Shown here piece by piece: positions 12,313-27,937 of a stretch of 64,000 bases of DNA. The stretch comes from a phage. Position numbers and translations under genes: made by a program. The stretch lies in assembly GCA_032691205.1 (NCBI GenBank), contig GCA_032691205.1_4541.1; one strand, given 5' to 3'. The stretch's first letter is position 1. The number at the start of each line of letters is the position of its first letter. Below the pieces are notes generated by a model that was given only the letters and a program-made list of their open reading frames with translations, searched no databases and was not told where the DNA came from.

Positions 12313-12349
12313 TCTTCCTCCTGTTCGGTATTATTCACCTGTGAGACAC

Positions 12350-12379
12350 AATGTAACACAAGCTTTGTGAGTTTGTCAA
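12350..12379 (-). promoter_or_regulatory. sigma70-like promoter (TTGACA N18 TACATT)
   Basis: Read on minus strand upstream of gene 12097-12312. Confidence 0.5.
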
Positions 12380-12513
12380 GGATCTAATTACATTCTACAG
12401 AAGAAGAGGGTTAATAACTATAGGAATAGTCTTACTATAGGTGCAATACTAGTTAAGACTTAGATTGATAGGTAAGACTTATCTTAAACAGATAATTGAT
12501 AGGTGAATCAGCA

Positions 12514-12571
12514 TTGACTTTTTCAAAAAAATATGGTACCCTAAACATATGTTTACGAGCGATAGCGAGTA
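12514..12571 (+). promoter_or_regulatory. conserved promoter-leader element, copy A
   Basis: TTGACT N17 (TG)TACCCT then 14 nt then GAGCGATAGCGAGTA; near-identical to copy at 48479. Confidence 0.45.
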
Positions 12572-12672
12572 GTAGATTTCTATATAATAATGTTTCATGT
12601 TACTCACGATAGTGAGGTATGAAACGTAAGTGAAGGTAGATAAACTATGATCATCTATCTACCATCTATTAA

Positions 12673-12882
12673 TCAGTATAGATCCAATGTTAGACTAACA
12701 GTTATCCAACAAACAATAACAGTCCATATAACAAGTAATGATCTACAAACTACATCCCATTCAAATACATTGTATGTTAACCATTCTCCCATCACAACAC
12801 AAGAACCTAACCAACATCCAACAATAACTATAATCCAATAAAAGAATCCTACAGTAGAGTATATAGCAAAAGCTTTTAACAT
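12673..12882 (-). CDS. small hydrophobic membrane protein (69 aa)
   Basis: ORF track; strong RBS GGAGGAAAG; hydrophobic translation. Confidence 0.5.
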   Translation of the reverse strand: MLKAFAIYSTVGFFYWIIVIVGCWLGSCVVMGEWLTYNVFEWDVVCRSLLVIWTVIVCWITVSLTLDLY

Positions 12883-13295
12883 CTTTCCTCCAGAAGTTGT
12901 TCAACAGTTTGACGAGTATGATTGTCCCAGTAAACCTTAGTGAAGTCAAGAGTCCCTTGTTCGTTTCTCTTAGTTTCGAAGAAGTATCCGCCTTCTCTTT
13001 CTACTCTGTCTCTAATGTGCTCTATAAGGTGCTTTTTACAAGATGCTGATAAACAATAGTCATACTCCCCACGAAGCAATGCTATAGCTGCAAGCCTGTT
13101 ATCACCAACTTGAGATATTGTCCAAGAAAGCATACTACCTTTTATACCTAAAGGTGTTTGTCGAATGGAATATCCACCATGCCGACTGATAGAAATTATG
13201 GCAAGTGGTTCTCCTGTTAGGGATCTTCCTAATGCACCTTCTGTTGGACTTCCTTCAATAACACGTTTGAAAAAAGCTTTGATCTTACCTAACAT
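12876..13295 (-). CDS. hypothetical protein (139 aa)
   Basis: ORF track. Confidence 0.6.
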   Translation of the reverse strand: MLGKIKAFFKRVIEGSPTEGALGRSLTGEPLAIISISRHGGYSIRQTPLGIKGSMLSWTISQVGDNRLAAIALLRGEYDYCLSASCKKHLIEHIRDRVEREGGYFFETKRNEQGTLDFTKVYWDNHTRQTVEQLLEERC

Positions 13296-13312
13296 AAGTC
13301 CCCCTTAAAAAC

Positions 13313-13447
13313 TTACTTGTTTAAAGTATCTCTTACTTGTTCTGCTTGACGTTTAGTAATAAAAGTCCCAACCGAAACGTTAAATTCATTGACTACAGAG
13401 AACGATCCATCACGATTCTCACGAATATTAAACAATTTCTTACTCAT
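13313..13447 (-). CDS. small protein (44 aa), not in ORF track
   Basis: Own translation MSKKLFNIRENRDGSF...; RBS AAGGAGGT. Confidence 0.45.
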   Translation of the reverse strand: MSKKLFNIRENRDGSFSVVNEFNVSVGTFITKRQAEQVRDTLNK

Positions 13448-13643
13448 TTCTACCTCCTTCGATGCTTTGTGCCGTACCATCCCAAGCCATTAGAATATTT
13501 GCCAATAGTTCACGAGGCTCTTTAAACCAAACTTCCATTTCATCAAGAATCTCGTCCGTGTCGTAAGTATAACCTGGAACACCAAGTTCGCATTTCTTAA
13601 GATAGCTTTCTAACCAGCGGTGATAATTCTTAACCCCATTCAT
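13440..13643 (-). CDS. hypothetical protein (67 aa)
   Basis: ORF track. Confidence 0.5.
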   Translation of the reverse strand: MNGVKNYHRWLESYLKKCELGVPGYTYDTDEILDEMEVWFKEPRELLANILMAWDGTAQSIEGGRNE

Positions 13644-14016
13644 ACTGTGCTACCTTTTCTTTTACCCAATCTACACGATCTTTATCATAATGTTGAGTGC
13701 CAAGGAAAAGACCATTGTGGAAACTTTCCTCACCGAAAGGATAAATCGGATCTAAACCATCTTCTTCAAATAACATTTTTAGTCTCTGTGATGTAGATTT
13801 CTTAGTCTCTGAGTTGTAGTTTGTGGTTATAAGCCAATCTTCCAAACAACGACACAAACCTTGACGAGAATCCCAAGGAAAAACACAATCTCCAACAGGA
13901 GCTTTTTCCGCCCATTCCAACCAGCCTTTAAAAAAGTTATACAATATGTAGTCTTCAGTGTAATACATTAGCGCCTCCTTTACGTATACAATAACACCCC
14001 GAAGAACGGGGTGCAA
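13630..14016 (-). CDS. paralog family A member (FY..W / GLC / PF / WVxDR)
   Basis: ORF track; shared motifs with 5 other ORFs. Confidence 0.6.
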   Translation of the reverse strand: MHPVLRGVIVYVKEALMYYTEDYILYNFFKGWLEWAEKAPVGDCVFPWDSRQGLCRCLEDWLITTNYNSETKKSTSQRLKMLFEEDGLDPIYPFGEESFHNGLFLGTQHYDKDRVDWVKEKVAQYEWG

Positions 14017-14019
14017 CTG

Positions 14020-14631
14020 TTATTTAATCTGTTTGAAAATTTCGTTTGGAACGGTACCGTTTAAAATACCTTCTACGATCTCCTGTGCAGACGTGTAAGA
14101 GAGTCCAAAAGAAGCTACGCCTAAAATTGCCTCCTTCAAAGGATCTGGCAGGGGTTCAAAATTACCTGCAACAAAGCCACCTGCACAAGCAGCGCCTTCA
14201 TCATCCCAGAAAACAACTGCTACATCGTTACCATGCGAAGTTGTGCGATGTGCAATAACTTCAACTTCTGTTCCTTCTTTAGGAACAGAATAAGAACTGT
14301 CCCAAGAATATCTTTCCAAATCAGGAACAAAGATAACCTTTTCACCTACTGGCGGCAGTTCACAACGATAATACCAAGAATTTTTTTCGTTCATTGTTTT
14401 ATTTTCCTCCACGTCTTCAAAAGTAACGATCCAATCGTAGCCGTAAGAAAACGGATATTTTAGATCTAAAGAATAAGTTTGACCTAGATCGTCCTCAACA
14501 AGAACCATCCTGTCAAAGTTTGCGATGTTAGGATTATGTTTAATGATAGGGTATGTTTCCCCTACAGTAAATTGCCCCAAATGGTAAAGTTCATCTCTCC
14601 AAGTAATTTGGATATGAGTGCATTGAATCAT
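14020..14631 (-). CDS. hypothetical protein (203 aa)
   Basis: ORF track. Confidence 0.6.
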   Translation of the reverse strand: MIQCTHIQITWRDELYHLGQFTVGETYPIIKHNPNIANFDRMVLVEDDLGQTYSLDLKYPFSYGYDWIVTFEDVEENKTMNEKNSWYYRCELPPVGEKVIFVPDLERYSWDSSYSVPKEGTEVEVIAHRTTSHGNDVAVVFWDDEGAACAGGFVAGNFEPLPDPLKEAILGVASFGLSYTSAQEIVEGILNGTVPNEIFKQIK

Positions 14632-14635
14632 AAAA

Positions 14636-14908
14636 TCACCCCCAAGAAATATTTATATATCTTACAATGTTTGCACTGTCTAAAGCCATGTTTGCACCAC
14701 ACCCACGCTCGCGCCAGTAACTAACAATACCTTCACAGATACTCTCTTGTATCTTCTTATCACTTGGCATTTCTAGTATAAGACTTGGGTTGTGGATGTT
14801 TATGTTATAATATCCTTCCTCTGCGGCTTGAGCTACCAATTTACTTACTTTTTCAAAGTACGGGGAATTAGTGGCATCTGCCATTGTTTTTAAGGTTTGT
14901 CTATCCAT
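14636..14908 (-). CDS. hypothetical protein (90 aa)
   Basis: ORF track. Confidence 0.55.
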   Translation of the reverse strand: MDRQTLKTMADATNSPYFEKVSKLVAQAAEEGYYNINIHNPSLILEMPSDKKIQESICEGIVSYWRERGCGANMALDSANIVRYINISWG

Positions 14909-15273
14909 TATTCTGCCTCATCATAGAAGAAATCCAACTCTTGTTCCAGTTGTTTAACTCGATCCTTAACCCACTGTACACGTTTTTCATTAAACATGCA
15001 ACGTTTTTCCTTACACTCTTGCTCAAAAGATTTTGCTGTGTTAAACGGGAAAGTTGTATCTAAACCAGCATTTTCAAAACTGGCTAATTGCATACCATAA
15101 ACAGAATATGCTAAAGAATGATCGGCTCGAAATTCATCACTTATATACATACGTAGACCTCGGCATAAGCCAACATCAGCGTAACCACTTTCTCGTGGAA
15201 AGAGACGGAGGTGTTCTAACCAATTATTATAGAAATCTAAAAGAATCCTCTTACACTTCAAATCAATTGTCAT
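14908..15273 (-). CDS. paralog family A member
   Basis: Track ORF trimmed to ATG 15273 after AAGGAG; GLC, PFN, WVKDR motifs. Confidence 0.6.
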   Translation of the reverse strand: MTIDLKCKRILLDFYNNWLEHLRLFPRESGYADVGLCRGLRMYISDEFRADHSLAYSVYGMQLASFENAGLDTTFPFNTAKSFEQECKEKRCMFNEKRVQWVKDRVKQLEQELDFFYDEAE

Positions 15274-15673
15274 AAAAAGTTTCTCCTTCATCGAACAAGT
15301 TGGCAAGATTGTTCACCGCAATTTGGGTGGAAAGAAGACAACTGTTTGCAGACACATAAGCACGGGCTATTTTGTAAACATAAGCTTTCGTATTGCAATC
15401 TTCTAAAATCGGAAGACTTTCATCGATAGCATCTATAACACTAAACATCACATCTAAAACTTTAATGGTGAGTGTTGTATTTGTATCTTCGTAACCTTTT
15501 TCAATCCGACCTGAATAGAAAGTATAGTCCTCAACAGTTCGTCGTTTAAATTGGCGCATAAAATCAGAACCATCTGTAGCAGAATTGAACAAATTTTCAA
15601 AAAATACCTCCCATCCGGCAAAAAGGGCTGACAGCATGATTAAGTGATCTACAGATTCATTTTCTTGTTTCAT
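15263..15673 (-). CDS. hypothetical protein (136 aa)
   Basis: ORF track. Confidence 0.55.
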   Translation of the reverse strand: MKQENESVDHLIMLSALFAGWEVFFENLFNSATDGSDFMRQFKRRTVEDYTFYSGRIEKGYEDTNTTLTIKVLDVMFSVIDAIDESLPILEDCNTKAYVYKIARAYVSANSCLLSTQIAVNNLANLFDEGETFYDN

Positions 15674-15681
15674 ATCCTCTC

Positions 15682-16359
15682 CTATTTAATGTTCAATCTA
15701 GCACACAAGCGAGAAACAGTTTTAGCATCCCACTTACCACCACGTGCTGTTGCGATTTTCTTACTATTGAATTTTTCAGCAATAGTTTTGTAAGGTGTAT
15801 TTAAATCTCTAAGGATCTCCAAGCGTTCACGGAATGTCTCTGCAAAAGCGTCTGCTTTAACAGAATTGTATTCCATTTTTCCTTTTCTACGTGCAGCGGC
15901 AGTTTTAGGATTAGCACTGCCTAATAAAACACCTTTGCTTTTTGCTACAGCAAGACCCTTTTTAATACGATCAGCAATACCTCTGACTTCTTGTTCAGCC
16001 AGAACAGACAGAAGCTGTATAACCATTTTATCTGCATCTGGCATGATGGCTATCTTAACATCGATCATTTCTAGAAGAGTTGCTACGGAGGCGTTGTTAC
16101 GACCCAAGCGGTCAACTTTAGCTACCAATAAAGTTGCTCCGGTAGCTTTACACATTTCAACCGCTTTGACCAGTTCCTTACGTTGCTTCCAATCGCCCTT
16201 ACCCGAATAGTATTCAGAAAATTGACCAATAACTTCAGCATCAGGCACAGAGTCTAAGAAGTAACGGATATCGTTCTCTTGGCTCTCCATACCATATTGT
16301 GCCTCACCTTTTTTCTGTTTAGAAAGACGACTGTAAACAACAAACTTTTTCATAACCAC
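15682..16359 (-). CDS. small serine recombinase (resolvase/invertase family)
   Basis: N-terminal VYSRLSKQ..GMESQ and RLGRN motifs; C-terminal HTH-like region. Confidence 0.75.
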   Translation of the reverse strand: MVMKKFVVYSRLSKQKKGEAQYGMESQENDIRYFLDSVPDAEVIGQFSEYYSGKGDWKQRKELVKAVEMCKATGATLLVAKVDRLGRNNASVATLLEMIDVKIAIMPDADKMVIQLLSVLAEQEVRGIADRIKKGLAVAKSKGVLLGSANPKTAAARRKGKMEYNSVKADAFAETFRERLEILRDLNTPYKTIAEKFNSKKIATARGGKWDAKTVSRLCARLNIK

Positions 16360-16423
16360 TCCTAAACCATTGCTGTATTCTCACTTTACAAAACGAATAA
16401 ACACTTGTCAAGGTATTTATTAT

Positions 16424-16636
16424 TTACAGCCATTCTACTTTTAAGCAGTATTCTTCGACATGTTGTTTACGCTTGTTTTTGTCTATGTAAGTGTATTCAA
16501 CAAATGTCCCAAGATAATCCTTGTCCACATTGTGTTGGCTATTAATTGGACATTTAGTACGACAAACCCGTTGCCACTGACGAAGAATTACGGTTTTGTT
16601 TTTAGGATCAAAGGGATGAGGGTAATGTGCCTTCAT
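16424..16636 (-). CDS. hypothetical protein (70 aa)
   Basis: ORF track. Confidence 0.5.
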   Translation of the reverse strand: MKAHYPHPFDPKNKTVILRQWQRVCRTKCPINSQHNVDKDYLGTFVEYTYIDKNKRKQHVEEYCLKVEWL

Positions 16637-16960
16637 TCATGCCTCCTGTTTTAGTCGAAAAATATTTTGAATAACGAGAGATGTATAGTTATCACTTAGT
16701 CCCATAAGTTCTACTTCCAAGTTTCGAATATCTTCCACCGTAGGAGGATATGTTGGTAAAAATGCTTGAGCATTACCAGATCCAACCTCATTGCTGTAAG
16801 CAGTTGTAAAATTGTAAGATACAAAACATGAAACACCTTTTTGTCGGTACCCGATTAATCGACGAATACACCAGATAAGAGCCAAACCTATGAGAACACC
16901 TCCTAAACCAGCTAACAAGAAGGATAAGTTCATAATAGCTTCGTTAACAACTGCTTGCAT
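16637..16960 (-). CDS. membrane protein (107 aa, one TM helix)
   Basis: ORF track; hydrophobic stretch LSFLLAGLGGVLIGLALIW. Confidence 0.55.
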   Translation of the reverse strand: MQAVVNEAIMNLSFLLAGLGGVLIGLALIWCIRRLIGYRQKGVSCFVSYNFTTAYSNEVGSGNAQAFLPTYPPTVEDIRNLEVELMGLSDNYTSLVIQNIFRLKQEA

Positions 16961-16970
16961 TCTTTTCTCC

Positions 16971-17270
16971 TTAGTTATGTAAACCCAAATGTGCTACAAC
17001 TTCTCTACGATAAGATAACTGCATAGCGATTTTATAGCCAGGATGAAAACCATTTACATCAATGTCATCAAACCAAACCTCAAATGAACCGTGTTTAAGA
17101 GTCATTAAGTTAATATACCATTCAATAGTATAATGATCGTTAGCAATACCTTCGATGTAAAATTCTCGACAACAGTGAGATAAATCTTCACTTGTTTCAC
17201 GTTTCCAGTCTTTGATAGCACCCTTCTCTTTGGCTTTATTCAGAATGTGGATCAGGTCTTCAACTTGCAT
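16971..17270 (-). CDS. hypothetical protein (99 aa)
   Basis: Track ORF trimmed to ATG 17270 after AGGAGAG. Confidence 0.5.
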   Translation of the reverse strand: MQVEDLIHILNKAKEKGAIKDWKRETSEDLSHCCREFYIEGIANDHYTIEWYINLMTLKHGSFEVWFDDIDVNGFHPGYKIAMQLSYRREVVAHLGLHN

Positions 17271-17280
17271 ATTCTCTCCT

Positions 17281-17835
17281 TTAGTTCCAACTAATAATGA
17301 TGTGTTTGATAATCCCAAAAATACTGTGCTCTGCGGTTGCCAATGTTACATCCAAACCTTTTGCACGTAGTATTGTAGCTACAACATTTGCCCCTCTTTT
17401 CTGTTCACTTATCTGTTCATAAGAAGAAGGGTTATTGCACAAACCAAAACTGGAAGGTTCAAAGTATTTTTCAAACTTCCCTTGTTCCGCACAATCTTCA
17501 ATCTCTAATAGAACGGCGTCTACCATTTCAGTAAAATGGGAATTTGCTTGCAGTGCTTTATTACGCAGTTTATCACGTAAACTTCCCGTAGATTCTTCCT
17601 GCTCTTCTGTCTGTCCCTCTTCACAGAAAGGATGAAGTTCAGCCCAGTCCCAAGCATCTCCTTCTAAAGCAAATGGAGTGTTGTAATTGAAGAAAGTGCA
17701 GCGCGGATATTCCCCGTTGAAAGAATCTTTCAGCAGAATATATTTCTTACCATTTGCATGGAAGAGTTCTCCTTTGATAACCTTACCTACAAGGATATCG
17801 CTGTTAGTGGAACGGGTGCAAATAAACTTTTTCAT
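17281..17835 (-). CDS. hypothetical protein (184 aa)
   Basis: ORF track. Confidence 0.55.
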   Translation of the reverse strand: MKKFICTRSTNSDILVGKVIKGELFHANGKKYILLKDSFNGEYPRCTFFNYNTPFALEGDAWDWAELHPFCEEGQTEEQEESTGSLRDKLRNKALQANSHFTEMVDAVLLEIEDCAEQGKFEKYFEPSSFGLCNNPSSYEQISEQKRGANVVATILRAKGLDVTLATAEHSIFGIIKHIIISWN

Positions 17836-17897
17836 GATTTTCTCCTCTTTGTTTCGATGAGATGATTATGACAAAGACAAATCCTTCTGTCAACGAT

Positions 17898-18119
17898 TTA
17901 TTTCCATTCCCCTTGGTGTTCTTTGATTTCATAAGAGTAGTATTCGAACATGCTCATACAAACCACACCAGACATTTCTAAACAAAGAGGTTTACTATTA
18001 TAAAAGGCACTTATCATTCTTCCAGCTTTATCTGCTGACTCTTTAGTATCACATCCGCAAACTGTTCTCACCCAAGGATCAGGGCCATCATATTTAAGAC
18101 GTACAATCCACATGATCAT
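17898..18119 (-). CDS. hypothetical protein (73 aa)
   Basis: Track ORF trimmed to ATG 18119 overlapping upstream TGA. Confidence 0.45.
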   Translation of the reverse strand: MIMWIVRLKYDGPDPWVRTVCGCDTKESADKAGRMISAFYNSKPLCLEMSGVVCMSMFEYYSYEIKEHQGEWK

Positions 18120-18343
18120 TCTTCCATCTCGAACCATTCAGGGAACACTTTGTGGAAGACACGTGTTGTTTCTAAGAGAAATTCCAACTCTTTTTCCAAG
18201 TCTGGGTTCCAACCATTTATTTTAACACGGATTGCCAATGTACTTGCACGGCGACTCAATTCTTGACAGATTGGATCACGCAGAACTATTGAATCATAAA
18301 ACTGACAAACAGCTTCAAGTTCATACCAGTTATAATCCGACAT
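18116..18343 (-). CDS. hypothetical protein (75 aa)
   Basis: ORF track. Confidence 0.5.
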   Translation of the reverse strand: MSDYNWYELEAVCQFYDSIVLRDPICQELSRRASTLAIRVKINGWNPDLEKELEFLLETTRVFHKVFPEWFEMEE

Positions 18344-18669
18344 TATTCATCCTCCTCTGCAATACGATCTCTTACCCAATTAATTCTGTCCACGTTCAGG
18401 TGACAGGCATCTGTATCTGACTCTAAGACATATGCATCGTAGTTCTCATTGAAAGGGAGTCCTTGATTCAACCCTTTATGGTAAAACTGTGCGTGCATTT
18501 CATCTGACAAGGTTGTTATAATGGGGTTGTAATTACCTCTGTGCACATAATCGAACAAGTTGGCACACAAACCACAATCCCGCCGAAAAGGTTTACCATC
18601 AGGAGCACCAACATCAATCCATGCTAGATAAATTTTATAAAACTCCATCAAATCTTTACTTGTTTTCAT
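18343..18669 (-). CDS. paralog family A member
   Basis: ORF track; FY..W, GLC, PFN, WVRDR motifs. Confidence 0.6.
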   Translation of the reverse strand: MKTSKDLMEFYKIYLAWIDVGAPDGKPFRRDCGLCANLFDYVHRGNYNPIITTLSDEMHAQFYHKGLNQGLPFNENYDAYVLESDTDACHLNVDRINWVRDRIAEEDE

Positions 18670-19013
18670 TATTTTACCTCGATCACGTTGATAAATACAT
18701 CTTCACGACAATCTTTATCGTCCCCGTAGATTTGACCTAATCGTACACATGCGTTAAAGGCGGATTTTGCGGGAATTTGATATTTACGGACAGGACCATT
18801 GTCTTTTGTGTAGGAAACCTCAAAGAGACGAATAGTGTCATCCTCAATTACATGAAACCGACCACAATCCATAATCAAAGAGATACACAGGGTATCCCCT
18901 TCTTCGTCTGTAATATAAAACAAACCTGGATTATCTATAACTTGGGAAGCTAGATACTGCTTACCCTCTTTAAGGAACTCGACAGAAGACTCTGCACATA
19001 AAAGTTTAATCAT
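18669..19013 (-). CDS. hypothetical protein (114 aa)
   Basis: ORF track. Confidence 0.55.
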   Translation of the reverse strand: MIKLLCAESSVEFLKEGKQYLASQVIDNPGLFYITDEEGDTLCISLIMDCGRFHVIEDDTIRLFEVSYTKDNGPVRKYQIPAKSAFNACVRLGQIYGDDKDCREDVFINVIEVK

Positions 19014-19074
19014 TTTTCTCTCCTTATCTGTGTTGATAATGTATGTATACCATACATAAAAGAAATGTCAAGGT

Positions 19075-19275
19075 TTATCGACACAGATAGTTGTAACGAT
19101 CCGCTTTATCCTCTGCTTCAGCAAAGTCAGCAATCAAGGAAGTTTTGAGTTCTTCCAACTCTTTCACCCAAGAGTCGTAATCGTTCTGTGTTTCTCCAAT
19201 AGTTTGGAGAAAACAATCGTCGTAGCCAATAGACATGGCTAACTCGATAATACGTTCCAGTTTTTCTTCCATCAC
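19075..19275 (-). CDS. hypothetical protein (66 aa)
   Basis: ORF track. Confidence 0.5.
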   Translation of the reverse strand: MMEEKLERIIELAMSIGYDDCFLQTIGETQNDYDSWVKELEELKTSLIADFAEAEDKADRYNYLCR

Positions 19276-19634
19276 TTCTCTCCTTCTACAGACTTCTGTT
19301 TAACATAAAAGTAAGCACCACGAGCAAGATACAAATCATGTTCAATATCGCTCACAGGAAAACCATCTGGATTTTTAAAACCGTCTTCTACAGCCAAAAT
19401 GAGAGATCGTAAACTGATAGCTAACAACTCCATTTGATCTTGTAGTTTTCTATTTTCTGCATAAAGGTTTTTGCATTTTTGTTCTGCATTTTTCCATTGT
19501 TCTAATGCATGATCATAGTTTCGCATAAGGATAGCTTTTTCTTGTTCACGTTTAAAAGTTTCTTCACAAATGAAACCCGTGCCTAAACCAGTTTCTTCAT
19601 CTTTGACAAATACTTCAACAAAATCTTTAGACAT
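19272..19634 (-). CDS. hypothetical protein (120 aa)
   Basis: Track ORF 19272-19754 trimmed to ATG 19634 (RBS AGGAG) to avoid overlap with 19636-19899. Confidence 0.5.
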   Translation of the reverse strand: MSKDFVEVFVKDEETGLGTGFICEETFKREQEKAILMRNYDHALEQWKNAEQKCKNLYAENRKLQDQMELLAISLRSLILAVEDGFKNPDGFPVSDIEHDLYLARGAYFYVKQKSVEGEK

Positions 19635-19635
19635 A

Positions 19636-19899
19636 TTATCTCCTATTTGCTTTTGGATACTCCCAGCCCTCTGGGAGATCTTCTTTACACATCCACTCAA
19701 AAGGCCAGCGACAATAACTGTGCCACTTCCCATCGAGATACAAGCAATCTTCATCTACTGGTCCACAAGGATTGATAACTACAACACACCCTTTTGCTCG
19801 CCAATACTGAACTATTTCGGGGTAAAAGCAAGAAACGTCGGTCCACTCCCAAATACGTTCATCATTCAAACGATATGCTGCTGGCAATGTTTCTTTCAT
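19636..19899 (-). CDS. hypothetical Cys/Trp-rich protein (87 aa)
   Basis: ORF track. Confidence 0.5.
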   Translation of the reverse strand: MKETLPAAYRLNDERIWEWTDVSCFYPEIVQYWRAKGCVVVINPCGPVDEDCLYLDGKWHSYCRWPFEWMCKEDLPEGWEYPKANRR

Positions 19900-19903
19900 A
19901 TTG

Positions 19904-20362
19904 TTAAACCTGAATCAAAGAGTCACGCCAATTACGGCTGTCTCCTTCTCCTAAATACCAACAATCTGCAACATTGATTACTTCATAAGGAATACGCCAA
20001 GCATGAACGAAATCTGGAATCTCTGGCTTATGACTGTAACCATAACGATCACCACTTGAATCTGTTGTAATATAATTAACAAATTCAGGAACATCTAGAG
20101 TTTCACCTTGATATTGCACACGCTTAAACCCTTCTTCTACCTCCTTTGGCAAACCTTCTACTAGACAAGCAAGAAGTTGAATGTGAGGACAAGTGAAGTC
20201 TTGTCCTGGATAACGTGAACGAATATCGTCTAACAATGCGATCACAGCATCTAATAATTCTTTATAATCCTCGTATCTTACAAATGTCCCTTCTGTAGGG
20301 TCATCTTTACATAGAGGCCAAGCATCACTCCAATTTACACCATAATGTTTAACTTTAGACAT
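19904..20362 (-). CDS. hypothetical protein (152 aa)
   Basis: ORF track. Confidence 0.6.
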   Translation of the reverse strand: MSKVKHYGVNWSDAWPLCKDDPTEGTFVRYEDYKELLDAVIALLDDIRSRYPGQDFTCPHIQLLACLVEGLPKEVEEGFKRVQYQGETLDVPEFVNYITTDSSGDRYGYSHKPEIPDFVHAWRIPYEVINVADCWYLGEGDSRNWRDSLIQV

Positions 20363-20449
20363 TTAAACTCCTATTCATAAACTAAGCTACCTAAAAGAAA
20401 TATACACACAGTGAAAAATATGATTTCGAACATCTTACGGTGAACTCTC

Positions 20450-20848
20450 TTAGTGTTGAGTACAATCAGCTTCTAGAGTAAGAACATTTGTTATTGTTTT
20501 ATCATTTTTAAGAAATGCAAACCAAGCTAAAGTGTCCCGATATTCTGTGCGTAGCATAACCACTTCAGTAGTGCCAATAAATTGTTGTGAACCGTACATA
20601 GCACTACCATCTTTACTTTTTTCTCCTGTGTATTGCAGAATGCCACTCATCAAAGCACCACCTGAATTTTTAAGGATAAAGGAGTTATCTTTATTAATGA
20701 CAACAGAAGCCATTTTCTTAGGACCAGAAATCACTTCACCTTTCAGATTTTTAACAACCACATCTGACACACACTCATAAACTTGAGACGCATTTGCTGT
20801 TCCAAGTGATGCAATGAGTAACAAGAAACCTACGATGATCTTTTTCAT
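20450..20848 (-). CDS. secreted/periplasmic protein with signal peptide (132 aa)
   Basis: N-terminus MKKIIVGFLLLIASLGTANA. Confidence 0.6.
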   Translation of the reverse strand: MKKIIVGFLLLIASLGTANASQVYECVSDVVVKNLKGEVISGPKKMASVVINKDNSFILKNSGGALMSGILQYTGEKSKDGSAMYGSQQFIGTTEVVMLRTEYRDTLAWFAFLKNDKTITNVLTLEADCTQH

Positions 20849-20943
20849 ATAAACTCTCCTCTTTATTTACCCGACGCGCCCCTGTTGGGCGGAAAGGGTT
20901 GTACGCAAAATTTTTAGCTCCAATCGTCGGGTGTCCCGACTCC

Positions 20944-21150
20944 TTACGCTTTTAATGTTTTAACAGAATGACAAGCTTTGCAAACAATAACCGGAACAAG
21001 TTCATCTCCATTATCCGCATAAATCACTGTTTTCTTCATTTCGCCACCGCATGAACAATACTCTGTATGATCCGCAGGAATATTAAATATTCCGTAATCA
21101 CTTTCATACTGTTTCTTACATATGGACACTGCTTTCGTAAAACAAGACAT
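20944..21150 (-). CDS. small Cys-rich protein (68 aa)
   Basis: ORF track; CSCGG and CKACH. Confidence 0.5.
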   Translation of the reverse strand: MSCFTKAVSICKKQYESDYGIFNIPADHTEYCSCGGEMKKTVIYADNGDELVPVIVCKACHSVKTLKA

Positions 21151-21152
21151 GC

Positions 21153-21374
21153 CTACTCCGCAAGAACATTCACTTCGTCAGAGAAGAATACGTAATCACA
21201 ACCTTCCCAAACATCTTCTTCAAACCACTCCCATCCCTCAACTTTGGACATTTCTTCTATCGTAACAAAGAATGTTGTCATATCATCGCTAACAAGATGT
21301 GCTTCAACAACAAAAGGAATCTGAACATTCTCAAAACCAACATAACCCAATACATCACAAACTCTAATTTTCAT
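21153..21374 (-). CDS. paralog family B member (EWFxE...DYVFF)
   Basis: ORF track; similar to 25461-25691. Confidence 0.5.
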   Translation of the reverse strand: MKIRVCDVLGYVGFENVQIPFVVEAHLVSDDMTTFFVTIEEMSKVEGWEWFEEDVWEGCDYVFFSDEVNVLAE

Positions 21375-21375
21375 A

Positions 21376-21576
21376 TTATGCTCCTTTGTAGATTATGTTG
21401 GTGCGTTCACACTCTGCTACCAGCAAGCGATTAGCAATGTTGTCCATAGGAACATCAATCTCTACGCTCCAGGCATTGATATACACTTCTTCAATCTTTG
21501 CTCCAAGCATTTGTGCGATCAAAGCAACAGCCCCAGCATATTCAAGTTTAATCTCAATTACCATTTTGCACCTCAA
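21376..21576 (-). CDS. hypothetical protein (66 aa)
   Basis: ORF track. Confidence 0.5.
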   Translation of the reverse strand: MRCKMVIEIKLEYAGAVALIAQMLGAKIEEVYINAWSVEIDVPMDNIANRLLVAECERTNIIYKGA

Positions 21577-21578
21577 GG

Positions 21579-21779
21579 TTATTTATCTTGCTTGTATCTT
21601 ACAAGGCGATCACACTCCAGGTCAAGAAATTTCTCCGCATTTCGTTCATGTTTGAGCACAATACATTGTTCTTTCCAGTCTGTAGCTCTTTGCTGCGCTG
21701 CTCCTGGGTCAAAATCCCAAAGCCATGCCGCGAAAAGAACAACCATAACAATTACCAAGAAACTAAACACTATTGGCAT
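21579..21779 (-). CDS. small membrane protein (66 aa)
   Basis: Track ORF trimmed to ATG 21779 after AGGAGG; one hydrophobic helix. Confidence 0.5.
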   Translation of the reverse strand: MPIVFSFLVIVMVVLFAAWLWDFDPGAAQQRATDWKEQCIVLKHERNAEKFLDLECDRLVRYKQDK

Positions 21780-22084
21780 TGCACATCCTCCTGTGTAGCA
21801 TGATCTTTTACCCATTTTATACGGGCAGCATTCAAATGCAATAGCCCGTTTCTTTGTGCAAAATCATATTTAAACCAGTCTCCGTCATCAAACGGGTATT
21901 CTTCAGACAACCCTGCTTCGCGGAATTGCATTTGCATTTCATAATTTAGATCATCATAGCCACCAGACCAAAGATAGAGGCAACTGCACAAACCTTTATC
22001 ATGCCAGAAAGGATTATTATCTGGAGCACCAGCTAACAGCCAATTATGATAGGCTTGATAAAATTCTTTAAGTTCCTCTGACAT
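21770..22084 (-). CDS. paralog family A member
   Basis: ORF track; FY..W, GLC, PF, WVKD motifs. Confidence 0.6.
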   Translation of the reverse strand: MSEELKEFYQAYHNWLLAGAPDNNPFWHDKGLCSCLYLWSGGYDDLNYEMQMQFREAGLSEEYPFDDGDWFKYDFAQRNGLLHLNAARIKWVKDHATQEDVQCQ

Positions 22085-22282
22085 TTAGCCTCCCGTATGC
22101 AGTGTTGAAAGATACACAGCAAAAGCATTCTCGGCTGTTTTCACCTCCTCTTCAAGATCTTCACGCTCTGCTGGCGTTAGCGCATTTCGCACAGCAGCGT
22201 CTGCTTCTCGGATTTTTCTTACTAAACGTGAAACATCTTTCAGTTGTTGAAAAGTAGCCATAATCTTTCTCCTTTTAGTCAA
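22085..22282 (-). CDS. hypothetical protein (65 aa)
   Basis: ORF track. Confidence 0.5.
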   Translation of the reverse strand: MTKRRKIMATFQQLKDVSRLVRKIREADAAVRNALTPAEREDLEEEVKTAENAFAVYLSTLHTGG

Positions 22283-22508
22283 ACCAGTTGTATTCAGAAG
22301 GGTAACGAGCGTAGTTTGGCTTGTACCCCAGCCTTTTCATCTTAACAGACATACGAGTGAAGCCAAAGGTTGTTTTGCCCTTAGACATAAACTTCTTCCC
22401 ACTCTTCATTGGCTTCTTAGGATTTTTGATCGTCTGGTGTAACGCTCGCGCAAGCCACAAAGTGTATGCACTCGGTACCTGATTAACTTTCATCTTGTTA
22501 CCTTTCAT
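22275..22508 (-). CDS. basic hypothetical protein (77 aa)
   Basis: Track ORF trimmed to ATG 22508 after AAGGAGGT. Confidence 0.5.
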   Translation of the reverse strand: MKGNKMKVNQVPSAYTLWLARALHQTIKNPKKPMKSGKKFMSKGKTTFGFTRMSVKMKRLGYKPNYARYPSEYNWFD

Positions 22509-22518
22509 CGATACCTCC

Positions 22519-22746
22519 TTAGTGAACTTCGTGCCAAGTGCCAAACTCTTCTGCTGATACTTTAGGAACGGCATGAGTTTCTCGGTATTTGTTTAAAGCT
22601 TTCTCAACGGCTGTAGCAAAAATATCTTGAGATTTGTGAGGCATATAATAAGCGCGTCCCATATATGCCAGTGCATCACGTAATTCTTCTGCTTGCTCTT
22701 GTGTAACTGTCAATGTGATAGTAACCATTATTTCACCTCCGACCAA
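22519..22746 (-). CDS. hypothetical protein (75 aa)
   Basis: ORF track. Confidence 0.5.
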   Translation of the reverse strand: MVGGEIMVTITLTVTQEQAEELRDALAYMGRAYYMPHKSQDIFATAVEKALNKYRETHAVPKVSAEEFGTWHEVH

Positions 22747-23027
22747 TCAATAGTGATCCACTCGTATGCCCCGTTCAAATCCATTTCTTTATAAACAATA
22801 AGCCCACGCTCACGAAGAATTGCTACTGCTTCATCCATCCATTTCACCTGATTGTAGATTTCCCCTGGGTGGGTAGGGGAATTATCCAGACCAAAATCAG
22901 ATGGCGTGAAATTTCTTGAAGAGTTTCCCGCTCGTGCTTCAGCAAAACATGTCTCGATCACTTCTTCAACAGGGAAGTTGAAGGAAGCTTCTTTTGCAAT
23001 ACGGCGTAACTGTTCGGTCAGATTCAT
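22728..23027 (-). CDS. hypothetical protein (99 aa)
   Basis: ORF track. Confidence 0.55.
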   Translation of the reverse strand: MNLTEQLRRIAKEASFNFPVEEVIETCFAEARAGNSSRNFTPSDFGLDNSPTHPGEIYNQVKWMDEAVAILRERGLIVYKEMDLNGAYEWITIDWSEVK

Positions 23028-23054
23028 TTTATTCTCCTTTCGATGTGCGAAACA

Positions 23055-23492
23055 TTATAACAGATCTAATGCTTTCAACTCTTCTTTCAATGATTCAGGC
23101 AGGTCACATTCAATGTCAATCAGAGATAACAAGTGACCAACAATGCCTTCCAGATGTTGATACTCACTATAACTTATAAATTCAGAATTGTAAACAGAAA
23201 CATCCTTAGTTTCTTTCACAACTTCCCCCGCAGACACGCACATAAAAAAGTTACGCTCTCCGCGAGCTAACAATATCTCCCAACTCCTGAACGGATACTG
23301 TCCAGCTTCAATAATATCCCCGCTGTCCAATAAAGTCAATGAGCAAACAGACCCTGATTCACTAACATCTTCGACGCGGAAACAAGACCCTTCAATCAAA
23401 GCTGCCATTTTGAAATTTTCATCAGAGATCATAGAGAAAGCTTCACATGCAGCTTTGCTTTTGAAACAGTAAACAGCATTAACTTTGAACAT
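23055..23492 (-). CDS. paralog family C member (MFKV..VY.F N-terminus)
   Basis: ORF track; tandem with two related ORFs. Confidence 0.6.
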   Translation of the reverse strand: MFKVNAVYCFKSKAACEAFSMISDENFKMAALIEGSCFRVEDVSESGSVCSLTLLDSGDIIEAGQYPFRSWEILLARGERNFFMCVSAGEVVKETKDVSVYNSEFISYSEYQHLEGIVGHLLSLIDIECDLPESLKEELKALDLL

Positions 23493-23501
23493 AATAGCTC
23501 C

Positions 23502-24287
23502 TTATTTTATTACCGCAGTAGGCTCAATACTAACAACACCAATACGCTCATAGATCTCAACAGTAGAAATTGGGTATTCTTCCTTCATCTTTTTTGCTTC
23601 TGTGGCGATCTCTTCGTAAGAATGTGACACCAGTTGGACATTCATACCTTTAACAATAGCATAGTGTTTAAAATTCTCTGCGGGTTCCTCTTGTTTAGGC
23701 TCAACAGCATCTTTAATATTTTTAAAGTAAGGGTTATCGCTTTTGATTAGCAGTGCACAAGCTTCCTTGAACCAGCCTTCACCTGCTACATGATTTGTAT
23801 TACATACAAGCCTACGGATTGCTGTTACATCTTGTCCAACCATCTTTGTGATCACGAAAGGATCATCGCCAATAAGATCGGAAATTTTTCGGTTTACATT
23901 GTTTGTCGTTTGTCCGCCGTCAATATAATTGGCGAAAAGCTTACGATCTTGTTCACTTGCAAACTTATAGACACCACCTTCTACAAAGACACAGCCTCCT
24001 GTAGGAGAATCTTCATAATCTTCAGGAGTATGTTCTTCAAAACGAGTATAATCCATACAACTTACAAGCTTATAACCTTCAGGGAAAAGCCCAGAACCAG
24101 CTTCGATGATTTTATTTGTGTCTAATACCTTCACCTTAGATACAGAACCAAGAAAATCAACATCCAAAACTTTAAACTTGCTATCTTGAATGCAACCTAC
24201 AAAGAAAGCGTTACCAATACTAGCTTTACCAAAATTCTTTTTGGTATCTTCCGATTTGAAATTATAAACAAAACCTACTTTAAACAT
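23502..24287 (-). CDS. paralog family C member (261 aa)
   Basis: ORF track; N- and C-terminal similarity to 24300-24758. Confidence 0.6.
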   Translation of the reverse strand: MFKVGFVYNFKSEDTKKNFGKASIGNAFFVGCIQDSKFKVLDVDFLGSVSKVKVLDTNKIIEAGSGLFPEGYKLVSCMDYTRFEEHTPEDYEDSPTGGCVFVEGGVYKFASEQDRKLFANYIDGGQTTNNVNRKISDLIGDDPFVITKMVGQDVTAIRRLVCNTNHVAGEGWFKEACALLIKSDNPYFKNIKDAVEPKQEEPAENFKHYAIVKGMNVQLVSHSYEEIATEAKKMKEEYPISTVEIYERIGVVSIEPTAVIK

Positions 24288-24299
24288 AACATTCTCCTT

Positions 24300-24758
24300 T
24301 TAAACAAAAGATACACCGATGGTAGCAACAACCATACGTTTATAAACTTCAACCTCTTCTGTAGGATTAGCCATTTTATGCTCTGCGGCTTCTTTCAAAG
24401 CTTCTTCATAACTTTCAAATCCAGAAATACAGGTGTCATCAGTCATTACAACATACCACTCTTCTTTTGTTGTATCAACAGGTTCTTCTTGGGGTTTTCC
24501 ACGACCACCACGAACACCACCGTCAACAAAATAATCTATATGAGCAGAATTGATTATGTAACGATCCCCTTCACCAGCAGTGATAATACCATCTCTCATA
24601 CCTATTACAACCATTGACAAGATATTACCATTTGCATCAGTGCTCAACACCTCGAAAAAATTCTCTCCAATGATAGCCGCAATACTGCTATCAAAGGTAG
24701 AATATAGTCGCATATAATCCTCATCCTGGAAACGGTAGACATGACCTTCTTTAAACAT
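24300..24758 (-). CDS. paralog family C member (152 aa)
   Basis: ORF track. Confidence 0.6.
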   Translation of the reverse strand: MFKEGHVYRFQDEDYMRLYSTFDSSIAAIIGENFFEVLSTDANGNILSMVVIGMRDGIITAGEGDRYIINSAHIDYFVDGGVRGGRGKPQEEPVDTTKEEWYVVMTDDTCISGFESYEEALKEAAEHKMANPTEEVEVYKRMVVATIGVSFV

Positions 24759-25212
24759 TGCTCTCTCCTCCTAACTCATCATACCATTTCAAAGCGTCTT
24801 TTGGAAGCATACCAAAATCTTCTTTTAGTTCTTTTTCAATCTCTTCTTGCATTTCCATCAGCGTTTTCAGTTGACGGACTTTTTTGTGCATAGCCACATT
24901 CCTTTCATTAAGGTTTGTCACTACATTATTTGTACGACTCGGTGGAAATGACAAAGGTTTCACGGGAAGATAATCTTCGATATTATCTAGTGCGTTACGA
25001 AAATTATGATCCAAGAAACGCACATCTACACGATTGTAATCAGCAGCTACAACAGTGAACACTTTAAACGGCACATTGGATAAAGTATGTTGCACACAGA
25101 CAGTACCCATATTACCTTCAATTTTACTGGTAACTTCCAGCAAACCTGTATGAGCACTAACATAATCGTGAACACATTGCACATAAGCTGCCAGTATAGT
25201 GAATTGTCTCAT
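24751..25212 (-). CDS. hypothetical protein (153 aa)
   Basis: ORF track. Confidence 0.55.
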   Translation of the reverse strand: MRQFTILAAYVQCVHDYVSAHTGLLEVTSKIEGNMGTVCVQHTLSNVPFKVFTVVAADYNRVDVRFLDHNFRNALDNIEDYLPVKPLSFPPSRTNNVVTNLNERNVAMHKKVRQLKTLMEMQEEIEKELKEDFGMLPKDALKWYDELGGESNV

Positions 25213-25457
25213 TTTCTACCTCCCCATAATGCTAACATTTTATTGAAAATGGAAACGCGTCGTGCGCGAGATGCCATATCATAATTCATTCTTTCCGTCT
25301 CTGCAAGAAATTGATCTACTGTAATCAACGCTTCTGTCTTCTCTTTCAGAGTTTGCATATTCATCCATTCACATTCAGAGTACCAATTATCGAAATACAA
25401 ACTATCGAGAAGATCCATTGCTGCTTCATTCTGTTGTGGTGTGATCATTGCACACAA
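25209..25457 (-). CDS. hypothetical protein (82 aa)
   Basis: ORF track. Confidence 0.5.
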   Translation of the reverse strand: MCAMITPQQNEAAMDLLDSLYFDNWYSECEWMNMQTLKEKTEALITVDQFLAETERMNYDMASRARRVSIFNKMLALWGGRK

Positions 25458-25460
25458 CCT

Positions 25461-25691
25461 TTAATAGACAATTTCATATTCGTGAGGAAAGAAAACATAA
25501 TCTTCCCCTTCTCGTGCATCTATCTCGTCCCAAAACCATTCCTGCACTTCCATCATCTTCGAGAATCGCACATGAGCAAGCCCACTGTATTCCACAGTAG
25601 CTTCCAACACAAGTGGAAATTTTGCATGTGCCAATCCTTTATAACCACCATCATTCTCAATACGAATTTTCATGCGTTTCATGTTATGCAT
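25461..25691 (-). CDS. paralog family B member
   Basis: ORF track; EWFWDE..DYVFF. Confidence 0.5.
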   Translation of the reverse strand: MHNMKRMKIRIENDGGYKGLAHAKFPLVLEATVEYSGLAHVRFSKMMEVQEWFWDEIDAREGEDYVFFPHEYEIVY

Positions 25692-25893
25692 CCTTCAGAC
25701 CCTTAATAAAGTAACGACCAACCGGATTCCCTCGGAAGTATTCGTTAATGAAATCGATAACACACGTTTCACTGCCTGTCACAACGGACGGCTTAAAGTT
25801 TTGGAATTCTACAACTACACGGCTGGCTTTAGCCAGTGCTTGCACACGTGTAGGATCAGTCAAGAACATTGTGACAGTTTTCAAATTCTTCAT
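25684..25893 (-). CDS. hypothetical protein (69 aa)
   Basis: ORF track. Confidence 0.5.
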   Translation of the reverse strand: MKNLKTVTMFLTDPTRVQALAKASRVVVEFQNFKPSVVTGSETCVIDFINEYFRGNPVGRYFIKGLKDA

Positions 25894-25942
25894 TTCATCT
25901 CCTCATTGGCTATCTGTTATGTCATCCATTATACAAACATCT

Positions 25943-26311
25943 TTATTCAATGCAAGCATTATTTGCATCTTCAATCCGATCTTTCACCCACTGAAGACGT
26001 AACGTGTTGGTATGACACGCCAAGTTTATACACTCTGAAAGGTAATCCATGCAATCCACATTGAACGGAAGATTGTAGTCCAGCCCTGCACATGTAAATT
26101 GTTTCCTCATTTCATATTTCAAACGGTCCAACAAATGATCACGCCATTTTCTATCTTCTTCTCTAGGTGTATCACCAACAAAATCATCTACATAATCTAC
26201 CAGACAACCACATAAGCCACTCGTTGTGCGATTCATTGCAGGATAGTTGGCAATCCATGCTTTATAGAAGCGAAGCAATGTTGCACTGCTCAACGGAATA
26301 CTATTTGTCAT
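25943..26311 (-). CDS. paralog family A member
   Basis: Track ORF trimmed to ATG 26311 after AAGGAGAG; GLC, PFN, WVKDR. Confidence 0.6.
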   Translation of the reverse strand: MTNSIPLSSATLLRFYKAWIANYPAMNRTTSGLCGCLVDYVDDFVGDTPREEDRKWRDHLLDRLKYEMRKQFTCAGLDYNLPFNVDCMDYLSECINLACHTNTLRLQWVKDRIEDANNACIE

Positions 26312-26645
26312 CTTTCTCTCCTTCATAATCTTGAATTCTATCTAGCACCCATTGTATACGATGTTTGTTTTTATGGCAAATATGTTTTTTATGTTCAAAG
26401 GTGTATTCCTCATAACCACCTTCATTAAACGGGAAATTGTAATCCAATCCTGCACCAATAAACTGTGATTTCATCTCCTGTTGTAGACGAGGTAACAGTT
26501 CATCAGGATATGTTCCCTCTACATACTTAATCAAACATATGCACAAGCCACTCGTTGTGTGACCTTCTACCTCACCAGCAAGCCAAGCTTTGTAAAACTT
26601 CATTAGACGTAAACTACTTAACGGAACATTTTTACTCTCTTGCAT
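26301..26645 (-). CDS. paralog family A member
   Basis: ORF track; FYKAW, GLC, PFN, WVLDR. Confidence 0.6.
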   Translation of the reverse strand: MQESKNVPLSSLRLMKFYKAWLAGEVEGHTTSGLCICLIKYVEGTYPDELLPRLQQEMKSQFIGAGLDYNFPFNEGGYEEYTFEHKKHICHKNKHRIQWVLDRIQDYEGEKDDK

Positions 26646-26985
26646 GACAATCTCCTCTCATCGTTAGCCATCTTTCATGGCAATCATCAATCACCAACAT
26701 CATACGATCAATCTTAAGGAATTACAATCGAATTATCATAGGGGATTCCTATCAATTATCCCATATATACCGATTATTTTTGACACCCCCACTCTTGTAT
26801 AAAAAGTAACCCAAAATATCTACGGGGAGAGATTATTTCGACACACCCTGTTTCATGGCAATCATGGCAAGAATATCTAATAGAATCAATATGATATGGC
26901 AAAAATCATGGCGCATACGTAAGAAGTGCTTAACGCGAATTTTCGGGCCGTCAGGTCCACGCAGCGACAATTCCCAAATATCATG

Positions 26986-27008
26986 CGAATGAGAATAATT
27001 ATCATTCG
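26986..27008. promoter_or_regulatory. Fur-box-like palindrome (candidate operator)
   Basis: cgaatgagaataattatcattcg, near-palindromic. Confidence 0.3.
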
Positions 27009-27338
27009 TATTCAATGACTTATGCAAGGCTCATGCCAACATAGCGACAAGGTGGGCCACCTGATTATAAATCACACAAACACTTATTTATCAATGGCTT
27101 GGCAACTTCATCATATGACGGAACAATGTCAACTGATCCCGCTCATGACAAGCAGACTATTATTTATATGAGAATGATTATTATTTAAACGTTTATTAAC
27201 ATAAAAACTAAAATAAATCAAGATTATTCTGATTTTATTTACGTTTAAGAGAAGGTGCTCAACATATCGCGTAGCGATAGTATTCGCCCCCAAAATTATT
27301 GACTTTTATTCTATTATGTGCATAGTGTGCAATGTATC

Positions 27339-27357
27339 GGAATGATGATAATCATCC
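27339..27357. promoter_or_regulatory. Fur-box-like palindrome (candidate operator)
   Basis: ggaatgatgataatcatcc. Confidence 0.3.
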
Positions 27358-27400
27358 TCCCATTGCCCCCATAATTATTGCCATGCTAATTGTTTCCTTA

Positions 27401-27423
27401 CATAATCATTACAATGATTATTG
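27401..27423. promoter_or_regulatory. inverted repeat ATAATCATT/AATGATTAT
   Basis: cataatcattacaatgattattg. Confidence 0.3.
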
Positions 27424-27901
27424 TTATTGCGCTAATGTTATGATCTTGGTAATTACATATAATGCTAATAATAAGCCAGCGCAATAAGTGTAAGCGTCAT
27501 TACGCTTGCAATTATTGCAAGCTACGCAGTAACAAGAAATAACCGTCACCGATGGTTATGATTGTTGGGGTGTAGTTGGCTTATTATTAGCTCGCTATGT
27601 GTCCGGCATAGCGTGCTAATGATGACTCTGTGAATGATTCGTTTTGTAATGATTTCATTCAGGCACTATTTTGCTAATAGTTATTATTTTAATGGTTTCG
27701 TTTGTTATTGTTCGTTAGTTGGTTGTTTTGTCGTGTTATCGTTATCTTGCTTAGTATTCATCATGGTTCGATTGTTTGTCGTTATCAATCATCTTGCTAT
27801 TATTCCTTTGATTATGATTAGTTTGCTTATTGTTTTATGTTGTTTGTTGGTTAGTTGTTGCGAACTATTATCAACATTATAATTATGCGCTTATATTGCA
27901 T

Positions 27902-27937
27902 AGATAATCATGGGTAGATGATAATGGTTATCATTGC
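27902..27937. promoter_or_regulatory. tandem Fur-box-like sites
   Basis: agataatcatgggtagatgataatggttatcattgc. Confidence 0.3.

Follow-up and report, generated by a model that had tools for sequence, protein, structure and literature searches.

A 64,000-nucleotide (nt) stretch of phage DNA (contig GCA_032691205.1_4541.1; the whole stretch is referred to below as the window) carries, within 13 kb of its minus strand, six small open reading frames (ORFs) whose products share a few short motifs. The locus raises the question of whether these ORFs are copies of one gene and, if so, what use a phage has for six versions of it. In this study, we report that the six, named c1 to c6, are, close to certainty, a real paralogous family whose relatives are spread through phages of many Proteobacteria. 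We also weigh what the proteins may do, and tentatively favour a role as small early proteins that bind host factors.

Six paralogous genes and their phage relatives

Between positions 13000 and 27000 the window is 99.2% identical to Escherichia phage phAPEC8_ev052 (LR597654.1; Stephanstirmvirinae, Phapecoctavirus), and shares 96-98% identity with dozens of related 150-kb E. coli myoviruses. An earlier reading of the letters without database searches (the sequence-only reading) had proposed a six-member family from an ordered motif set, and all six ORFs were found on the minus strand where it had placed them. Every one of the 15 pairwise BLASTP comparisons among the translations was significant, with E-values from 1e-3 (c1/c5) to 1e-32 (c5/c6) and identities of 21-47%, so that the shared motifs did not prove to be chance resemblances. 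The highest identity, 47%, was that between c5 and c6, which are also sisters in the tree. In leave-one-out searches, a profile built from five copies retrieved the sixth at E 2e-16 to 4e-29, and no other ORF scored significantly among the 679 read from all six frames of the window. Aligned over their whole length, the six translations have 15 columns without variation, and together these results bear out the proposal of a diversified paralogous family.

The motif set stood in part. The F..W of helix 1, GLC, PF and R..WV are invariant, while the fixed FY..W that had been described is not, since the spacing differs between copies (FYxxW in c5 and c6, FYxxxxxW in c3 and c4). The family-wide set F10, Y11, W17, G33-L34-C35, F62, P72-F73, N92, R95 and W98 (c3 numbering) is present in all six copies, with minor exceptions in c1, where F replaces Y11 and D replaces N92. 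Searches with two family hidden Markov models (HMMs) detected no seventh copy, either in the window or in the remaining ~100 kb of LR597654.1. Since that genome is 99% identical, the six are the full complement for the phage; they also form the largest paralogous family within the window.

All six genes lie on the minus strand. c1 (13630-13968; 112 amino acids (aa), isoelectric point (pI) 4.65) and c2 (14908-15273; 121 aa, pI 5.27) are the most divergent copies, and c3 (18343-18669; 108 aa, pI 4.82) is nearest to the family consensus. c4 (21770-22084; 104 aa, pI 4.54) is followed by c5 (25943-26311; 122 aa, pI 5.13) and c6 (26301-26645; 114 aa, pI 5.94). The start of c1 is almost certainly the ATG at 13968 and not the TTG at 14016, because an AAGGAGG Shine-Dalgarno site stands 7 nt upstream of the ATG, the same start is annotated in LR597654.1, and a terminator-like hairpin (13994-14014) lies under the N-terminal extension that the TTG would add. 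Good Shine-Dalgarno sites precede all six genes, and each copy overlaps or abuts its neighbours (-1 to -14 nt): c2 overlaps its upstream gene by 11 nt and its downstream gene by 1 nt, and the stop of c6 and the start of c5 overlap by 11 nt. Orthologs of the six are annotated as coding sequences (CDS), all 'hypothetical protein', in the related reference records. The Shine-Dalgarno sites, the overlaps and the CDS annotation in all related records identify the six copies as real, translationally coupled genes.

The wider family was examined by profile. The profile of PHROG 2510, a family of unknown function, matched all six copies at about E 1e-25 to 1e-32 over ~105 profile positions; the profile is 219 positions long because of members with tandem domains. 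Its prototype is the N4 protein gp3 (YP_950481.1), which has the same length and motifs as c3, is 32% identical to it, and was matched by the family HMM at E 6.5e-22. Weaker related families are PHROGs 6418, 27059 and 2176. An exhaustive profile search of 1.84 billion cluster representatives returned 1,854 clusters at E <=1e-3 and 885 at <=1e-10. Two or three tandem domains were seen in ~10% of the retrieved proteins, for example three in gp339 of Burkholderia phage BcepSaruman. The long homologs contained only repeats of their own domain, and none of ten long proteins carried a Pfam domain. A search with a diverse 60-sequence profile returned 15 proteins, none of them with a Pfam annotation. 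That the six are chance resemblances or non-coding ORFs with coincidental motifs can be regarded as excluded by the pairwise and leave-one-out statistics, the PHROG matches, the 1,854 clusters and the Shine-Dalgarno sites, as well as by the confidently predicted fold and the purifying selection described below.

By tblastn, 262 of 50,697 phage records matched, from phages that infect Escherichia, Klebsiella, Rhizobium, Achromobacter, Salmonella, Erwinia, Ralstonia, Pseudomonas, Delftia and other genera; they include N4 (gp3) and N4-like podoviruses, T7-like Rhizobium phages and rV5-like myoviruses. Five records of ~146 kb are labelled 'Campylobacter phage' (host C. jejuni) and carry this Phapecoctavirus-type region, and their host attribution looks doubtful. 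Among 72,556 plasmids there was a single match, on a P1-type phage-plasmid; judged from this comparison of phage and plasmid records, the family appears to be restricted to phages. N4 and most other phages have a single copy, or else two genes, of which one has a single domain and the other is a tandem fusion, compared with six copies here and up to ten or more in relatives.

Diversified small helical proteins encoded in tandem are reminiscent of immunity-gene arrays, and the copies could in principle be immunity proteins or antitoxins, each neutralising a cognate toxin, as in polymorphic-toxin immunity or toxin-antitoxin (TA) arrays. We consider this very improbable. No recurrent partner family stands beside the copies, the neighbours being different for each; no match to a Pfam immunity, toxin or TA family was obtained; and the family is all but missing from the plasmids searched. 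A cognate-partner gene was also sought by an all-versus-all comparison of the window, which revealed no second family with a matching copy number.

The named members of the family are all 'hypothetical' or 'uncharacterized', and so are the source names of ten diverse clusters, all 'hypothetical'. No function is attached to PHROG 2510 or N4 gp3, and the papers searched on phAPEC8 and Phapecoctavirus, on N4 gp3 and on rV5 paralog families assign none to gp3 or to the family; text matches to 'N4 gp3' were discarded, as they concerned gp30-39. In searches of Pfam, NCBIfam and PADLOC no copy reached a curated threshold. The best sub-threshold matches, ARMC9_LisH (16 bits against a 27.3-bit cutoff) and PifA (E 0.022, one copy), are at chance level.

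Predicted fold, conserved residues and a candidate pocket

The structure of c3 was modelled with AlphaFold2 from a 40-sequence alignment, giving a predicted local distance difference test score (pLDDT) of 94 and a predicted template modelling score (pTM) of 0.87. The domain, of ~100 aa, is modelled as five helices, predicted at residues 5-19, 34-43, 50-64, 77-85 and 93-107. Foldseek comparison with 350,542 PDB chains gave a best E-value of 3 and template modelling (TM) scores of <=0.32, and a sequence-profile search of the PDB gave nothing below E 0.17; the match at that value, to caspase-3 p12, was rejected as noise. As both searches were empty, the model would represent a new fold, with no solved relative detectable by the tools used. 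Structural matches in BFVD were confined to uncharacterised phage proteins of the same fold (TM 0.7-0.85), often several per phage. A model of a two-domain fusion (P0040; pLDDT 73, pTM 0.64) was too weak to show how the domains pack.

Conservation was measured over 175 domains of <60% mutual identity, from phages of diverse (alpha-, beta- and gamma-) Proteobacteria. Residues of the buried face (L7, F10, Y11, W17, L34, L38, F62, L67, W98, V99) are 75-97% conserved. A set of special and polar residues is likewise conserved, with G33 at 97%, C35 at 99%, P72 at 100%, F73 at 99%, N92 at 93%, R95 at 100%, E57 and Q61 at 82% each, Y80 at 81%, E83 at 74% and H90 at 71%. GLC starts helix 2, PF lies in the loop before helix 4, and Asn-x-x-Arg-x-x-Trp-Val starts helix 5. 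Entropy is lowest in helices 1 and 5 and the PF loop (2.0-2.2 bits). Variability and indels are concentrated in loop 2 (residues 44-49; 3.9 bits), in helix 4 (3.3 bits) and where helix 3 begins, with an insertion hot spot after residue 46 in loop 2, which is where c5 has its 12 extra residues. Covariation analysis suggested two polar networks, one of S4, Y11, E57, Q61 and residue 102, the other of N74, E83, C89 and N92.

This pattern could mark a ligand-binding or catalytic pocket formed by Cys35, Arg95 and Asn92 together with Glu57, Gln61, Tyr80, Glu83 and His/Tyr90. Such a pocket might sequester or modify a small molecule or nucleotide, for instance as a sponge for an immune second messenger, or might present a thiol nucleophile to a host macromolecule, and the paralogs would then differ in ligand or substrate specificity. 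Since these polar residues are so extremely conserved among phages whose hosts are far apart, we take the pocket seriously, as the main rival to the host-factor binding favoured below, though on balance we regard it as doubtful. A cysteine preceded by glycine in the first turn of a helix is common for activated thiols and anion-binding sites, and Cys35 is predicted to occupy just such a place in helix 2. The His, Tyr or Trp found at position 90 would allow base stacking, and purifying selection on every paralog is also in keeping with a pocket. Against this, no enzyme or known sponge was found to be similar in sequence or in fold, His90 is not invariant (Met in c2), and Ser4 and Asn92 stand at classic helix N-cap positions. 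The co-varying pairs S4-E57, S4-Q61, Q61-102, N74-E83 and E83-N92 suggest structural polar networks more than a single common pocket, and a Cys/His metal site has no support from covariation. To our knowledge, moreover, a genome does not usually carry a known sponge family in 6-10 copies.

Several specific candidates were tried and rejected. Covariation gave no support for a zinc or disulfide site made of C35, C37, C89 and H90. A HEPN ribonuclease, which is all-alpha with an R-x(4-6)-H motif, did not fit the family. A papain-like or Cys-His thiol enzyme was likewise discarded: the Cys is 99% conserved at a helix N-terminus, but His90 only 71% (with the exception in c2), and the proteins are all-alpha and have no structural matches of that kind. 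Comparison with solved anti-defence proteins, DNA mimics and nucleotide sponges revealed no fold similarity.

Selection on each copy and turnover of the set

The sequence-only reading had called the family fast-evolving. Ratios of nonsynonymous to synonymous differences (pN/pS) were estimated by Nei-Gojobori counting between orthologs of the phage and four relatives, a sample of few and closely related genomes, and were 0.13, 0.04, 0.26, 0.01, 0.24 and 0.05 for c1 to c6, compared with 0-0.46 for other genes of the operon. As values of 0.01-0.26 lie within the range of the neighbours, each copy appears to be under purifying selection. c3 is 25-39% identical to its own paralogs, 32% to N4 gp3 and 40% to a Rhizobium phage protein, and in a distance tree (drawn without support values) the Stephanstirmvirinae clades are interspersed with homologs of N4, the P1-like phage-plasmid and the T7-like Rhizobium phage. 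Because the copies lie as far from each other as from these homologs, the paralogs appear to be about five old subfamilies, and c5 with c6 is the one pair that resembles a tandem duplication in place. The earlier term thus holds for the turnover of copy number and alleles, and fails both as a claim of rapid or positive selection and as one of a recent duplication burst, the paralogs being deep. The family is better described as anciently diversified and individually conserved, with rapid copy-number and allele turnover.

That turnover is seen among close relatives. Six copies are carried by this phage, SKA64 and WPEC6, seven by phAPEC8 and nine by phiWec188. WPEC6 lacks c6 and has an extra c3-like copy; such a copy, ~400 nt downstream of c3, is also found in phAPEC8 and phiWec188. 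In phiWec188, DNA comparison detects just one of the six orthologs, and divergent family members stand in place of the other five. A metagenomic relative (L011) has at least ten domains in 12.6 kb, with an expanded c4 clade, and five consecutive family genes followed by a two-domain fusion make up a tandem run of seven domains.

Public sequences also include chimeras. P0008 joins the N-terminal half of c6 to the C-terminal half of c5, and P0005 the first nine residues of c6 to c5; each is a recombinant of the two adjacent copies. Many otherwise divergent alleles of the c5/c6 locus (25943-26645) end in the identical C-terminal sequence DRIEDANNACIE, which suggests cassette swapping against a fixed 3' boundary. 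The array thus changes by tandem duplication, domain fusion, unequal recombination between neighbours and cassette replacement, and turnover of copies and alleles is a pattern typical of host-interaction or counter-defence genes.

In large viruses, 'genomic accordion' families such as the poxvirus host-range genes and the MGF families of African swine fever virus (ASFV) behave in a partly similar way. By analogy, the present family may resemble them in having paralogs clustered near a genome end or early region, gain and loss of copies, tandem runs, and chimeras among close strains. It differs in that proteins and hosts are unrelated, and in that the paralogs here are old, under purifying selection and show no evidence of recent amplification under selection.

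A probably early operon and the possible role of its products

All six copies belong to a leftward operon (10191-26645, minus strand) of ~50 small, tightly packed or overlapping genes, of which c6 and c5 are the first two. In phAPEC8 the operon spans ~16.7 kb and ends at an annotated terminator before convergent Sir2-like genes. c6 and c5 stand directly after a leader of 1.5 kb, and the operon is of an early, accessory-gene type. The early region of N4 has gp3 as its third gene, after gp1/gp2 and ahead of the RNAPII genes gp15/16 (PMC4496689). At the left end of the Autographiviridae (T7-like) Rhizobium phage RHph_TM38, genes 002 (one domain) and 003 (two domains) are members. Family members thus belong to the genes that enter or are expressed first in three unrelated phage architectures; for the present phage the timing is suggested by gene order.

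We tentatively favour, with somewhat less than even confidence, the reading that the products are small acidic early proteins which bind host factors through a conserved scaffold with variable loops, in the service of host takeover or counter-defence. It is favoured by the early position in unrelated phages, the restriction to phages and the acidity of the proteins, by the fact that no enzyme signal was detected, and by the way copies are gained, lost, fused and exchanged as alleles. The proteins would be produced in the first minutes of infection and would act stoichiometrically, not enzymatically, with a separate host factor, or a separate variant of one such factor, as the partner of each copy. 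A scaffold common to all copies, and possibly a shared docking patch, would be built from the GLC turn, the PF loop and helices 1 and 5, and target specificity would come from helix 4, the beginning of helix 3 and the hypervariable loop 2. A phage with several subfamilies might in this way handle a broader range of hosts or defence variants. The six proteins have pI values of 4.5-5.9 (family median 5.6), and such acidity makes direct DNA binding unlikely.

Several observations weigh against host-factor binding. No positive selection was seen in the orthologs, so their sequences give no direct indication of an arms race. The neighbouring genes of the operon encode equally acidic products (median pI 5.2), and acidity therefore does not distinguish the family. 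A promoter consensus scan was not enriched over shuffled sequence. Finally, a polar set unusually rich for a pure binder (Cys35, Arg95, Asn92, Glu57, Gln61, His90) is conserved across alpha-, beta- and gamma-proteobacterial phages, which fits a pocket for a ligand or for catalysis, or else one very conserved target, at least as well. Binding of host factors and a pocket can be combined, as a common pocket with variable specificity.

A role within the phage itself was also considered, in which the proteins would be small regulators or assembly cofactors of the early-to-middle programme (transcription, RNA metabolism or replication initiation). Consistent with it are the purifying selection on each copy, the conservation of six copies across most Phapecoctavirus genomes, the presence of GoF-like 'mRNA metabolism modulator' paralogs in the same operon, and the place of N4 gp3 next to gp1 and gp2, cofactors for N4 RNAPII. 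We nevertheless judge it unlikely. Members occur in N4-like phages, T7-like phages, myoviruses that depend on the host RNA polymerase and a P1-like phage-plasmid, and such entirely different transcription strategies argue against a role tied to the machinery of one phage. Copy number and alleles vary freely between near-identical phages, which would be unusual for core regulators, and the proteins are acidic with no match to a DNA-binding fold.

The favoured host-factor binding can be compared with small early phage anti-defence proteins, such as the DNA mimics T7 Ocr and ArdA-type proteins and the nucleotide sponges Tad1, Tad2 and Acb2. The likeness, drawn by analogy, would be in being small, acidic, phage-specific and among the first genes expressed; the family is unlike them in being multi-copy, and has no sequence or fold similarity to any solved structure, those of the proteins just named included. 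The core-binding (N-terminal SAM-like) domain of tyrosine recombinases was also listed among the closest known systems. A bolder proposal, which we consider possible but well short of probable, is that the GLC-PF-RxxW domain is a new and widespread counter-defence module with an unseen fold, in which the Cys35/Asn92/Arg95 pocket would bind a nucleotide-derived immune signal or a conserved motif of a host defence protein, loop 2 and helix 4 would tune specificity, and 6-10 or more paralogs would serve as a toolkit. If so, several defence systems would be neutralised at the start of infection, and N4 gp3 would be the first genetically tractable member.

With ~1,850 clusters at 50% identity in phages of Proteobacteria, the family is among the larger ones of completely unknown function, with no solved structural relative. 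It is among the first-expressed genes of N4 and probably of the phAPEC8-, rV5- and phi92-like myoviruses used against avian pathogenic (APEC), extended-spectrum beta-lactamase-producing (ESBL) and Shiga toxin-producing (STEC) E. coli. The family has expanded to 6-10 copies that are rapidly gained and lost, fused and replaced by other alleles; in genomes, such a signature has repeatedly pointed to host-range and anti-defence determinants. The target of the family could explain differences in host range among near-identical therapeutic phages, and the family could add a new fold and mechanism to the repertoire of phage-host conflict. Should the proteins prove to be housekeeping cofactors, a role would still be gained for a long-unannotated early gene of N4.

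The leader (26646-28150, minus strand) is gene-free and A/C-rich, lies between a terminator hairpin and c6, and is presumed to be the promoter or regulatory region of the operon. It is 91-97% conserved across Phapecoctavirus, and ~70% in part in other Escherichia phages of Stephanstirmvirinae size (~145-149 kb), and is unannotated in most records. Sigma-70-like hexamer pairs occur in it, as consensus matches that are no more frequent than in shuffled sequence. Rfam and tRNA scans of the window, the leader included, were empty.

A palindromic 17-mer, ATGAKAATNATTATCAT, was found at six intergenic sites of the window (26989-27005, 27168-27184, 27918-27934, 39375-39391, 39433-39449 and 53478-53494), three of them upstream of the operon that begins with c6. 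These amount to 12 strand matches, against 0.29 expected, a number reached in none of 100 shuffles. Two of the six also fit the Fur-box consensus of E. coli, GATAATGATAATCATTATC, at three mismatches (0.08 such matches expected). The 17-mer looks like an operator, and could be a site for host Fur or for a phage regulator.

Upstream of the leader, a GC-rich terminator-like hairpin, AAAGGGCGC...GCGCCCC, occurs twice (28149-28169 and 28714-28734, 90% identical) and flanks a single gene (28185-28604). A near-consensus sigma-70 promoter for this gene, TTGACA-17-TATATT, is present at 28678-28650. On account of the flanking hairpins and its own promoter, the gene may be an insulated one-gene unit.

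Other genes of the operon were also noted. The 114-aa gene directly upstream of c3 (18669-19013) is absent from, or a fragment in, all four relatives, as a strain-specific insertion. A serine-recombinase (resolvase/invertase)-like gene (15682-16353) lies inside the operon; it is labelled 'Methionine ABC transporter ATP-binding protein' in LR597654.1, probably a mis-annotation, and 'resolvase', 'DNA invertase' or 'serine recombinase' elsewhere. The GoF-like paralogs are three adjacent genes (23055-23492, 23502-24287 and 24300-24758) that share an N-terminal MFK(V/E)G..Y.F domain; two of the three are annotated 'goF / RNA metabolism modulator' in LR597654.1, and the middle one (261 aa) is absent or partial in four relatives. 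Two further paralog pairs were detected in the window, one at 17281-17835 and 22728-23027 (35% identity, E 2e-7), the other on the plus strand at 35101-35439 and 36054-36437 (55%, E 2e-5).

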